Origin: a virus
Virus record (IMG/VR): IMGVR_UViG_3300042887_005324
Span: 1-64,000 of that record
Reading direction: 5' to 3' (one strand)
Length of the DNA stretch: 64,000 nucleotides
Shown here: positions 45,101-47,007 of the stretch, piece after piece
Layout: each line of letters opens with the position of its first letter
Position numbering within the stretch: the first letter of the stretch is position 1
Translations under genes and position numbers: made by a program
The notes under the pieces: model-generated
Database searches by the model: none
What the model was told of the DNA's origin: nothing
Seen by the model: only the letters and a program-made list of their open reading frames with translations

Positions 45101-45168
45101 CCAGTAGTGAACAAATAAGTTACTTCGAAATTGCTTATGAAAAAACACTTATTTGTAATTTACTCTGG
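45101..45168 (+). ncRNA. Y RNA-like hairpin 1 (minimal)
   Basis: CCAG[T]AGTGAA/TTTACTCTGG stem with a 1-nt 5' bulge, a 3-nt 3' bulge, then CAAATAAGT/ACTTATTTG; loop begins TACTTCGAAA; upstream of TROVE. Confidence 0.6.
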
Positions 45169-45180
45169 TCGACATATATA

Positions 45181-45475
45181 TGAGGACATGGTCATAGGAT
45201 GAGATACTTCGAAAATTAACGATCAATTATCAATCTATGATTAAAAAACTGAATGGCTGGTCAAGCCTGATGTATCCACTTGTGGTTAAAAAGACCGGTT
45301 AGTTACCAAAAACTGTTCTGACCAAATGAACTAAAAGATTGGGGTTGAAACTAAAGACCTAAACAAAAGTTGGATGAAGATGGACACCCTAAAGAAAACA
45401 TCGACAAACTTTCAAAGTTAGTTAAGTACTAATAGAAAGCTCTTGTGACAGCTCAACTAGCTTTTCCTGTCCTCA
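45181..45475 (+). ncRNA. Y RNA-like RNA 2 (about 295 nt, multi-branched)
   Basis: TGAGGACA[T]GG/CCTGTCCTCA closing stem with a 1-nt bulge; second TACTTCGAAA at 45206; internal hairpins; no plus-strand ORF; followed by a terminator and TROVE. Confidence 0.55.
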
Positions 45476-45484
45476 AAAACTATG

Positions 45485-45518
45485 AAAGACCAGATTTACT
45501 TTGTGAATCTGGTTTTTT
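45485..45518 (+). terminator. Terminator/attenuator between the ncRNAs and TROVE
   Basis: AAAGACCAGATTTAC-TTT-GTGAATCTGGTTTTTT. Confidence 0.75.
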
Positions 45519-45555
45519 CATTTTTAAAAACGAAACTATAAATAAAGACAAAAAT

Positions 45556-47007
45556 ATGGCAAAATTCAATCAAACAGTTGTCAAGTCAAAGACAAAAACA
45601 ACAAACCAAGCAGGCGGACAAGCTTACAAAGAGTCTAACGAATTAGCTCTTGTATCTCTTTTATTAACATCATTTGTTAATGATCAATTTTATCGATCAT
45701 CAGATGAGTCTTTATCTGAGTTGAAAAAGCTTATTAAGACAATTCCTAACAAAGAATTTATCGCAAAGTCTGCTATTTTTGCTCGTGATGAATTTGGAAT
45801 GAGAAGTATTACTCACGCACTAGCCGGTGAGTTGGCATCTGAAATTTCTGGAAAAGAATGGGGTAAGAACTTCTACGATAAAGTTGTAAGTAGAGTAGAT
45901 GATATGACCGAAATTATGTCGTATTATCTATCAAATAAAACTGATAAAAATCATCCAAAGTTCCCTAATTCTCTGAAAAAAGGGTTTGCATCAGCTTTTG
46001 ATAAATTTGATGAATACCAGTTGGCAAAGTATAAAGGTGAAAACAAAGAAGTTAAATTAGTTGATATTGTAAACTTAGTTCACCCAGTTCCAAACGATAG
46101 AAATAAAATAGCACTTAATGCTTTAGTTAATGACAATTTGAAGAATACAAAAACTTGGGAATCTATGCTTTCACAAGCTGGACAAAAAGCACAAAGTGAA
46201 GAAGAGTTGTCTCAATTAAAATCAGAAGCTTGGGTCGAACTATTATCTACAAGGAAAATAGGATATTTTGCCTTATTAAGAAACTTGAGAAATATAATTA
46301 ATCAAGCTCCACAAGCAGTTCCTTTAGCTTGTGATTTATTAGTTGATGAGAACATGATTTCAAAGTCTAAAGTTTTACCTTTTAGATTCGCAACTGCATA
46401 TGAAGAAATTTCTAAACTCGGAACATCATCTGATGTTAGAAAGGTTTTAGTGGCTATCAATAAGGCTTTAGACATATCTTGTTGTAATGTTCCAAAATTT
46501 GATGGTGATACTTTAGTAGTAATCGATGTCTCTGGATCAATGGGTGGTAGACCATCTGAAATTGCTTCACTTTTTGGATCTATGATATCAAAAGCCAACA
46601 ATTGTGATGTGATGACATTTGCTAATACCGCCAGTTATAAGGCTTATAATCCTATGGATTCAATATTAACTATTAGAGATAGTTTTAGATTTAGTGGTGG
46701 TGGTACAAACTTTCAAGATATTTTTATCAAGGCAAACAAGGCTTACAAAAGAATAATTATTTTGAGTGACATGCAAGGATGGCTTGGTTATACAACACCA
46801 ACCAAAGAATTTAATTCATATAAGAAAAAATTCAATTGTGAACCATTTGTTTATTCATGTGATTTAGCTGGATTGGGAACATTACAGTTACCAGAAAAGA
46901 ATGTATTTGCACTCGCTGGTTTTTCTGAAAAGGTTTTCGATATAATCAAGTTGATGGAAGAAGACAAGAATGCTCTTTATAATAAAATAAACAAAATACA
47001 AATTTGA
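45556..47007 (+). CDS. rsr: Ro60/TROVE-domain RNA-binding protein with vWA domain (start revised to ATG 45556)
   Basis: TNQAGGQAY, FARDEFGMRS, FDEYQLAKY, LVHP, TWES, ALLRNLRN, LPFRF, MIDAS DVSGSM, ILSDMQ, GFSEK. The GTG start at 45445 would overlap the ncRNA and terminator. Confidence 0.93.
   Translation: MAKFNQTVVKSKTKTTNQAGGQAYKESNELALVSLLLTSFVNDQFYRSSDESLSELKKLIKTIPNKEFIAKSAIFARDEFGMRSITHALAGELASEISGKEWGKNFYDKVVSRVDDMTEIMSYYLSNKTDKNHPKFPNSLKKGFASAFDKFDEYQLAKYKGENKEVKLVDIVNLVHPVPNDRNKIALNALVNDNLKNTKTWESMLSQAGQKAQSEEELSQLKSEAWVELLSTRKIGYFALLRNLRNIINQAPQAVPLACDLLVDENMISKSKVLPFRFATAYEEISKLGTSSDVRKVLVAINKALDISCCNVPKFDGDTLVVIDVSGSMGGRPSEIASLFGSMISKANNCDVMTFANTASYKAYNPMDSILTIRDSFRFSGGGTNFQDIFIKANKAYKRIIILSDMQGWLGYTTPTKEFNSYKKKFNCEPFVYSCDLAGLGTLQLPEKNVFALAGFSEKVFDIIKLMEEDKNALYNKINKIQI

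Follow-up and report, generated by a model that had tools for sequence, protein, structure and literature searches.

The 174-kb virus record IMGVR_UViG_3300042887_005324 in IMG/VR, for which CheckV gives a completeness of 68%, was analysed over its first 64,000 nucleotides (nt), referred to here as the window. The plus strand of this window encodes a homologue of Ro60, a 483-amino-acid (aa) protein composed of a TROVE ring and a vWA domain (45556-47007, with its ATG at 45556), and upstream of this gene lie two conserved structured RNAs: a Y RNA-like hairpin termed unit 1 (45101-45170) and a 295-nt RNA termed unit 2 (45181-45475), each identified by folding and covariation. The two RNAs are linked to Ro60 and share a handle of the type that closes YrlA RNAs; one of them is bare, and the other carries a domain with two pseudoknots and no tRNA-like domain.

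The Ro60 homologue matches the Pfam TROVE family (E 1.9e-18) as well as PHROG 850, annotated as 'RNA-binding protein' (E 1.3e-42), and its best solved relative is the Ro60 protein of Thermus phage phiLo (9KOP/9L5Y; E 1.3e-20, residues 13-476). A preliminary description of this DNA, made from its letters alone, had placed two RNAs closed by bulged stems and a terminator ahead of a TROVE gene, and the stems, the bulged U's, the terminator and the TROVE open reading frame (ORF) are all present in the sequence.

Structure of the two RNAs and their common handle

Unit 1 is a single long hairpin on the plus strand. Its terminal stem, P1 (45102-45105/45166-45169), is followed by a bulged U (45106), two AG/CU base pairs (45107-45108/45164-45165), an internal loop that places UGA opposite AAUUUA, and an upper helix of 10 bp (45112-45121/45148-45157). 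The apical loop starts with UACUUCG (45121-45127), the first U of which also closes the upper helix, and ends in GAAAAAAC; across the family this loop measures 26-40 nt, with UACUUCG invariant and the A-run (GAAAAAAC) at its 3' end. The pairing of CCAG[T]AG (45102-45108) with CTCTGG (45164-45169), proposed at the outset, is retained. The 3-nt bulge that had been placed opposite the bulged U does appear in the minimum-energy fold of the window, as AAU on the 3' strand (z -3.4 against shuffled sequences), but the family-wide structure is an asymmetric 3x6 loop of YGA against an AAUUUA-like strand. In alignment A2 (71 distinct sequences), the helices of unit 1 are 96.8% paired, compared with 34-56% when the partner strand is slid, and two-sided changes are found at 12 of the 16 pairs, a result matched by none of 500 shuffles; P1 is 97.2% paired and has compensatory changes. 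A covariance model built only from unit 1 sequences of the window's family (R1) scores 85.7 bits at unit 1 and finds no second copy of it in the window or the 174-kb record. The RNA region as a whole folds with a z of -5.1 against shuffled sequences.

Unit 2, likewise on the plus strand, is closed by the pairing of TGAGGACA[T]GG with CCTGTCCTCA (45181-45191/45466-45475). The 5' strand of its handle (45181-45211) consists of P1 (45181-45188), the bulged U (45189), GG (45190-45191), the loop UCA (45192-45194), the P2 strand UAG-GA-UGAG (45195-45203) and UACUUCG (45205-45211), with CGAA at 45210-45213, while the 3' strand (45452-45475) returns through P2 (CUCA-A-CUA, 45452-45459), the loop GCUUUU (45460-45465), CC (45466-45467) and P1 (45468-45475). 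Measured from P1 to P1, unit 2 spans 293 nt in the window and 214-320 nt in the family, with a variable interior and a common core. It folds with a z of -3.4 against shuffles, and in alignment A3 its 41 pairs in nine helices are 92.2% paired, compared with 30-45% in slid controls. P1 is 99.7% paired, with compensatory changes at 6 of 9 pairs, and the long-range P2 (UAG-NN-UGAG / CUYA-NN-CUA) is 97.8% paired. The many G-U pairs of unit 2 indicate that the plus strand is the RNA strand. Two other pairings were considered for this part of the molecule, a local hairpin GAGAU.../...AUUUC after P2 and a pairing of AACUAUGA with CAUAG in P1; both occur only in subsets of the sequences, and the alignment supports P2 instead.

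The handle common to both units comprises ∼45 nt and consists of a terminal stem, a bulged U, two base pairs (RG/CY), the asymmetric 3x6 internal loop, a helix of 9-10 bp and (U/A)UACUUCG. The bulged U is found in 69 of the 71 unit 1 sequences and in all 72 unit 2 sequences, the 5' side of the internal loop reads YGA (UGA or CGA), and AAUUUA is the top consensus of its 6-nt 3' side in both units. UACUUCG is invariant in both units and reads UACUUCGAA in both copies of the window. The two TACTTCGAAA copies recognized earlier are indeed there, at 45121 and 45205, the second having first been placed one base off, at 45206. A kink-turn reading of the 3x6 loop was rejected, as the strand order does not fit. 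The duplication of the handle in two units gives it the appearance of a common protein-binding site.

Inside its handle, unit 2 holds a domain of ∼240 nt in the window with two pseudoknots. Pseudoknot A (45255-45296) is formed by a hairpin, GGCU/AGCC (45255-45258/45264-45267), whose loop GGUC (45259-45262) pairs with a downstream GACC (45293-45296); an A-run (45288-45292) precedes the GACC, and a small hairpin, CCA-CUUG-UGG (45276-45285), lies in between. The corresponding alignment columns (126-128/215-217) are 95% paired through the variants GAC/GUC, AAC/GUU, GGC/GCC and GUC/GAC, the pairing also occurs in four-base forms (GGUC/GACC, AUCC/GGAU and ACUC/GAGU), and in an alignment-free test the pairing partner was present in 71 of 72 sequences, compared with 46.8 +/- 2.6 after permutation. 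The hairpin stem of pseudoknot A does not vary and is therefore given as a predicted helix. The pairing of GGCTGGTC with GACCGGTT, originally drawn as an inner hairpin, survives in its central 3 bp (45260-45262/45293-45295), which are conserved but belong to this pseudoknot, and its remaining pairs are not conserved.

Pseudoknot B (45372-45402) consists of a hairpin, GGAUG/CACCC (45372-45376/45385-45389), whose loop GAUG (45379-45382) pairs with CAUC (45399-45402) behind an A-rich linker, the core kept in the family being the pairing of the loop with a downstream AUC(G). Its hairpin stem covaries, one pair being AU in 33, GC in 22 and CG in 6 sequences, and the pairs between loop and downstream strand are 92% paired and change from GC to UA in 13 sequences. 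Just 5' of the 3' strand of P2 follows hairpin e (45404-45446), a long hairpin built in the window from ACAA/UUGU, CUUUC/GAAAG and GUUAGU/ACUAAU, where each pair in columns 374-379/414-430 and 383-385/408-411 has ∼21 two-sided changes. The two other inner hairpins of the preliminary description were not borne out in the family: AACTAA/TTAGTT exists in only 4 sequences, and AAAGTT/AACTTT is only 58% paired. Its broader claim, that unit 2 lacks T and D arms and contains a large structured domain in their place, is supported, the domain by the covariation and the pseudoknots.

Resemblances of the unit 2 interior to known RNAs were followed up and abandoned. An RNase P-like reading of GGUGAAAAAGUCCGG, AGAUGG and AUCGGC in the relatives fails in that the pairing partners differ and no RNase P covariance model matches at E<=10, and an equivalent of RNase P helix P4, in which strands resembling GAGGAAAGUCCGG and, further downstream, CCGGCUUA would pair, is ruled out by the pairing of the GUC of 'GGUGAAAAAGUCCGG' with the upstream hairpin loop. 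A T-loop reading of UUCGA was likewise dropped, since its fifth base (the A58 equivalent) varies.

Conservation, genomic setting and presence in RNA libraries

Relatives of the locus were gathered by a protein-guided scan and three DNA-pattern scans and were filtered with regular expressions, yielding 78 sequences of unit 1 and 72 of unit 2, with few duplicates, from ∼75 distinct loci; the source contigs, viral or from freshwater metagenomes, reach 490 kb. The closest public relative of the window is a 634-kb uncultured phage (LR745206.1), and the stretch itself occurs in lake and freshwater metagenomes. Both units are present at every relative locus with enough sequence, and 67 of the 72 loci with a complete unit 2 have a TROVE match on the same strand. 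Ro60 starts 63-101 nt 3' of unit 2 in 57 of these 72 loci, and the sequence runs out too early in four of the five that have no TROVE match. Covariation among the TROVE-upstream regions of related phages, a check suggested with the preliminary description, is strong in both units, and the occurrence of the two units in ∼75 distinct loci with compensatory changes places the RNA pair far beyond chance.

The spacing between the RNAs and the protein gene is not rigid. In several relatives, an insertion of 168 nt up to 1.6 kb separates unit 2 from the Ro60 ORF, and in four the Ro60 gene itself is split by an endonuclease ORF. In one such arrangement (L012, 3001-5133; also L013 and L014, with similar cases in L015, L287 and L313), Ro60 is broken near residue 160 into ORFs of 156 and 324 aa, with an HNH/NUMOD3 endonuclease ORF between the halves and both upstream RNAs intact.

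Upstream of unit 1, alignment A1 retains a promoter-like element, TCTATAAATAATCCACCCTTGAAAAA ... TCATATATA (44985-45035, plus strand), a segment of ∼50 nt conserved among the relatives although their upstream genes differ. A second copy lies ahead of another gene at 503-555 of the window, so that the element, TCTATAAAwAATCCACCCTTGAAAAA ... TCATATATA, stands 5' of a transcription unit in both of its occurrences; it probably represents a class of phage promoter. Downstream, a plus-strand intrinsic terminator (45484-45518), formed by the hairpin GACCAGAUU...AAUCUGGU and a U-run, separates the RNAs from the Ro60 start codon, ends 38 nt before the ATG and is kept in all relatives.

The RNA pair is also represented in RNA libraries. 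In six metatranscriptome runs, drawn from five studies, 42-71% of the words sampled from 45060-45560 were present, and four runs from four studies were compared with 44400-47400. Four contigs align over their whole length: one of 365 nt to 45109-45472, one of 326 nt to 45142-45467, one of 276 nt to 45193-45468 and one of 270 nt to 45119-45390. A 163-nt contig begins at 45099, and one contig spans unit 1 into unit 2. Three of the contigs end, with no loose ends, at 45467-45472; this is the base of unit 2 P1, ahead of the terminator hairpin, and gives a weak hint of a 3' end or of processing at this point. No contig matched the lysozyme gene upstream of the RNA pair, and the Ro60 ORF had only a partial match of 42 nt, though uncovered parts prove nothing and were not used as evidence. 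A contig from run X18 contains the handle of unit 2 and both flanks, with 128 different letters replacing 45210-45339; it can be read as the variant unit 2 interior of a relative (in place of the window sequence between 45209 and 45340), which is then also present in RNA libraries. The presence of these RNAs in lake metatranscriptomes points to a system that is active in nature.

The handle at distant Ro60 loci and in known Y RNAs

When the regions upstream of other phage Ro60 genes were searched for TACTTCG, three copies appeared in the crAss-like gut phage csAssE-Sib (L336, OR575929.1), whose Ro60 is 32% identical. At 2497-2915, this phage carries three tandem handle-bearing units of 125-128 nt each upstream of Ro60, with the handle ACAG[U]GG UGA, a 9-bp helix, AUACUUCG and, on the return strand, AAUUAU CC CUGU. 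The handle is identical to that of the window in its stem, bulged U, GG/CC pairs, UGA opposite GCUUUU or AAUUAU, 9-bp helix and (A/U)UACUUCG, and the units share the tandem placement upstream of Ro60; csAssE-Sib differs in having three units with tRNA-like interiors, whereas the window has two units without any. One of its units (2499-2626) is unannotated and has its T arm ahead of its D arm, as in YrlA, while the other two inserts are full cloverleaves, recognized by ARAGORN, Rfam and GenBank as tRNA-Tyr (2666-2738) and tRNA-Lys (2811-2884). Instead of being free tRNAs, these two may be the cargo of Y RNAs. The triple array recurs in many crAss-like IMG/VR contigs.

A module scanner located the handle in many crAss-like contigs, in the viral contig L390 from IMG/VR and, directly upstream of Ro60, in an Allosphingosinicella genome (L476). 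Model R1 matches the first unit of csAssE-Sib (E 3.8e-6), treating its tRNA-like part as a loop insertion, and minimal hairpins at 2343-2422 of L476 (E 1.3e-5), at 1395-1479 of L390 (E 3.1e-5) and at 2447-2522 of the Arthrobacter phage Atuin (L335; E 0.004). The rsr locus of the Allosphingosinicella metagenome-assembled genome (2160-2560) contains, in tandem, a tRNA-like unit with UUCCUUCG, a minimal hairpin with the same loop layout as unit 1 of the window, and a YrlA-like unit. The hairpin of Atuin is unannotated, has a GUUACUUC loop and is immediately followed by a tRNA array, beyond which comes the Ro60 gene of this phage; several other actinophages have Ro60 genes inside tRNA arrays. A TGGTGA...TTACTTCG pattern also occurs twice beside the Ro60 genes of Micropepsaceae (L508) and Acidoferrum (L525). 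Loose pattern scans (ATAG..TGAG.TACTTCG and TGGTGA..TTACTTCG) gave mostly chance matches in bacterial genomes, and Ro60 was nearby only for those having the full module or two copies.

One known relative of this arrangement is YrlA, represented in Rfam by RF02553 (Chen et al., 2014, PMC4201824). The RF02553 model, confirmed to be present in the library searched, recognizes the tRNA-bearing units of L476 (E 1.3e-9 when searched alone) and, in a joint search, those of L476 and L390 (E 1e-7 to 8e-3), with scores as positive controls of 46.8, 38.2 and 37.7 bits at the two loci and an E of 5e-5 at L390; its gathering score is 69 bits. At L476 the model aligns its 'ggCgaAUGC' to 'GGUUACUUCG'. The handle of the window, with its U bulge, RG, YGA, 9-bp helix and UUACUUCG, also closes RNAs that are recognized as YrlA, and the window RNAs resemble YrlA further in lying next to Ro60 in the same orientation and in ending in a bulged stem with a conserved motif on its 5' strand. 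Unit 2 departs from YrlA in having no T arm, D arm or acceptor-like stem, in replacing a tRNA-like domain of ∼80 nt with a double-pseudoknot domain of 214-320 nt, and in its family motif, UACUUCG instead of GNCGAAN0-1G. The Y RNA-like character first claimed for both RNAs is upheld by this module of stem, bulge and UACUUCG at distant Ro60 genes, and the suggestion to search with bacterial Y RNA models gave the YrlA result described here, blank in the window and positive at L476 and L390. A handle that persists beside Ro60 genes sharing no more than 24-32% identity, with different inserts on it, is what marks the portion of a modular Y RNA that binds Ro60; the handle is accordingly the one that Y RNAs have in common and presumably the site for Ro60, and the insert is exchangeable.

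Minimal or second Y RNAs in the form of long hairpins are known from S. Typhimurium (YrlB) and D. radiodurans (Yrn2) (PMC4201824). By description only, unit 1 resembles these: it is one long hairpin that has no tRNA-like module and accompanies a larger Y RNA upstream of Ro60. It differs in its apical loop of 26-40 nt with UACUUCG on the 5' side and an A-run on the 3' side, in place of a small pyrimidine-rich loop. The Ro60 of phage phiLo, the closest solved protein, binds two upstream Y RNA-like RNAs (Yrl1 and Yrl2) with nanomolar affinity and enters a ternary complex with the host PNPase (PMC12135203). Its locus shares with the window the two Y RNA-like RNAs upstream of a phage Ro60 gene and a stem-bulge-stem architecture; the CGAA of the phiLo RNAs also stands in both window RNAs, though only in a minority of their family. 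Yrl1 and Yrl2 were defined by folding around CGAA and not by covariation, and no large pseudoknotted domain is described for them (PMC12135203). R1 has no match at the phiLo locus (L340), where a single UACUUCGG (1307-1314) lies upstream of Ro60, in the region to which Yrl1 and Yrl2 were assigned, but in a different predicted context, and may be due to chance.

Similarity to the metazoan Y RNAs (RF00019) is confined to the topology of the bulge, as the metazoan Y_RNA model gives no Rfam match in the window and there is no sequence similarity. The metazoan Ro60 site, in accounts associated with Green (1998) and Stein (2005), reportedly consists of a terminal helix with one pyrimidine bulging out of the 5' strand, followed by two base pairs and then by extra unpaired nucleotides on the 3' strand. 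Contacts of the metazoan protein involve this bulged helix and GGUCCGA (PMC12135203, PMC4201824). The window RNAs differ further in being bacterial-type transcription units with an intrinsic terminator, not RNA polymerase III genes.

Proposed function of the RNA pair and competing explanations

Taken with their conservation next to Ro60, these comparisons make it likely that the two noncoding RNAs encoded in 45101-45475 are Y RNAs and function together with the Ro60 of the phage itself. Unit 1 has, on sequence grounds, the features of a minimal Y RNA, and since this type also occurs in bacteria and other phages, the bare form is not new; the minimal partner RNA is a widespread type that is absent from Rfam. 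The new element is unit 2, where a novel pseudoknotted domain stands in for the tRNA-like effector. Of the 'new Y RNA class' announced initially, it is this form with a replaced module that stands, whereas the form with a deleted module is known from Allosphingosinicella, the IMG/VR contig L390 and Atuin. Y RNAs are thought to be two-part adaptors that join a stem for Ro60 binding to an effector module, and every bacterial species examined has at least one Y RNA with a tRNA-mimic effector (PMC4201824). The handle described here is defined precisely, through covariation, across phages and bacteria, and it carries nothing, a permuted tRNA mimic, a full cloverleaf or a pseudoknotted domain of ∼240 nt, which constitutes direct comparative evidence for an exchangeable effector module.

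A mechanism consistent with this picture would begin with the transcription of both RNAs together, probably from the promoter-like element near 45030, and their release from a common precursor by cutting. If the element at 44985-45035 is the promoter, a leader of ∼60 nt must come off to yield the 5' end at ∼45099. Most transcription would end at the terminator (45484-45518), with read-through producing the Ro60 mRNA. As bacterial Y RNAs and the phiLo system suggest by analogy, the protein would bind the handle, its putative docking site, which would present an exchangeable effector module: a tRNA mimic elsewhere, nothing in unit 1 and a double H-type pseudoknot domain in unit 2. Unit 1 could then simply occupy or gate Ro60, while the domain of unit 2 would most likely offer another docking surface and tether Ro60 to a partner that does not handle tRNA, such as a host exoribonuclease. 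As a natural pair on one handle, minimal and cargo-bearing, the two RNAs could serve to separate Ro60 binding from effector function, and the partner of the new domain, once found, could reveal what phage Ro60 is for.

Several observations weigh against the assignment of the two RNAs as Y RNAs of Ro60. The published contact motif, given as GNCGAAN0-1G or CGAA, is not kept in this exact form: the two window copies have UACUUCGAAA, and across the family just 19 of the 71 unit 1 sequences and 12 of the 72 unit 2 sequences continue from UACUU into CGAA. The Rfam Y RNA models do not score at the window locus, and RF02553 finds nothing in the window region, whether searched at its gathering score or at E<=10, and nothing in the 174-kb record at E<=1. 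More generally, no Rfam family reaches its gathering score in the window or in 11 relatives, and scans of the region at E<=10 gave noise. One relative (L059, 5615-9150) keeps both RNAs but has a DEAD/ResIII helicase ORF and a minus-strand ORF downstream where Ro60 would be, and Ro60 was not found anywhere on its 103-kb fragment, which is 18% complete. RtcB and a CCA-adding enzyme were not found in the 174-kb record, an uninformative result at 68% completeness, and an RNA ligase gave only a sub-threshold match of 24 bits there. Finally, the RNA-library contigs cannot prove RNA ends, strand or abundance. The same relative, L059, also has a GIY-YIG/NUMOD3 ORF upstream of the RNA pair.

A wider version of the Y RNA reading is possible and is put forward tentatively, as a rather doubtful generalization: the handle may be a general Ro60 adaptor for any cargo, and the cargo of these lake jumbo phages a new autonomous RNA fold with an activity of its own. 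Such a cargo could mimic a host RNA other than tRNA, bind a ligand or catalyse a reaction, and the fold of unit 2 would recruit Ro60 to a target or partner enzyme addressed by no known Y RNA. The phage would then have a Ro60 system without any tRNA-like Y RNA, contrary to the pattern reported for all bacteria examined.

Among explanations that do without a Y RNA, the one that survives best, though improbable, regards the structured region mainly as a cis-acting leader of the Ro60 mRNA, an attenuator, a riboswitch-like element or a Ro60 autoregulatory site with no function in trans, which would govern the passage of transcription through the terminator at 45484-45518. The RNAs lie between the promoter-like element and the Ro60 start codon, the terminator ends 38 nt before the ATG with no separate promoter evident, and the large pseudoknotted domain is similar to riboswitch aptamers in complexity. 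Against such a role, the handle is duplicated in two separately closed RNAs, and the same handle elsewhere closes tRNA-like Y RNAs for which the trans-acting reading is established (PMC4201824). Relatives tolerate insertions of up to 1.6 kb that move the ORF away from unit 2, and in L059 the ORF is missing entirely; an alternative pairing that could act as an anti-terminator was not observed, and the contig ends at the P1 base, before the terminator hairpin, add a weak hint in the same direction. Attenuation and action in trans are not exclusive, as attenuation can set the ratio of RNA to protein.

It is very unlikely that the RNAs are phage small RNAs unrelated to Ro60, such as decoys for host defence or regulators of host RNAs, that are merely syntenic with the TROVE gene. 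L059, which retains the RNA pair without an adjacent Ro60, and the departure of the conserved motif from the published CGAA in most family members would fit such RNAs, but they do not explain the same-strand adjacency in 67 of 72 loci or the recurrence of the handle beside Ro60 genes 24-32% identical in gut phages and in bacteria of two phyla, where the neighbouring genes differ, and matches to the pattern away from Ro60 lack the full module. That unit 2 is a tRNA mimic in disguise, a YrlA so diverged that insertions conceal its T and D arms, is hardly credible: it does occupy the YrlA position with a YrlA-type handle, and the loop of hairpin X (AGAUGGUCA) loosely fits the A..GG..A pattern of a D loop in 5 sequences, but this loop covaries and pairs with the downstream AUC and so is not a D loop, T-arm-like hairpins (a TTCRANN loop on at least 4 of 5 bp) are found in just 2 of 72 unit 2 sequences and at non-homologous positions, ARAGORN finds no tRNA in the window, and the tRNA and YrlA models have no match at E<=10 in the region and none at E<=1 in the 174-kb record, though the YrlA model scores at L476 and L390.

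A lysozyme gene lies on the minus strand upstream of the RNA pair (44127-44945), and the 610 nt between it and Ro60 contain no ORF of at least 40 aa (45000-45444 checked on both strands). On the 3' side of Ro60, an ORF of 253 aa (47094-47855) without a Pfam or PHROG match is syntenic in 40 relatives; it was considered as a candidate partner protein and set aside, as it clusters instead with T4 baseplate-like proteins (protein atlas score 0.96; PF12322 in 19-30% of members).

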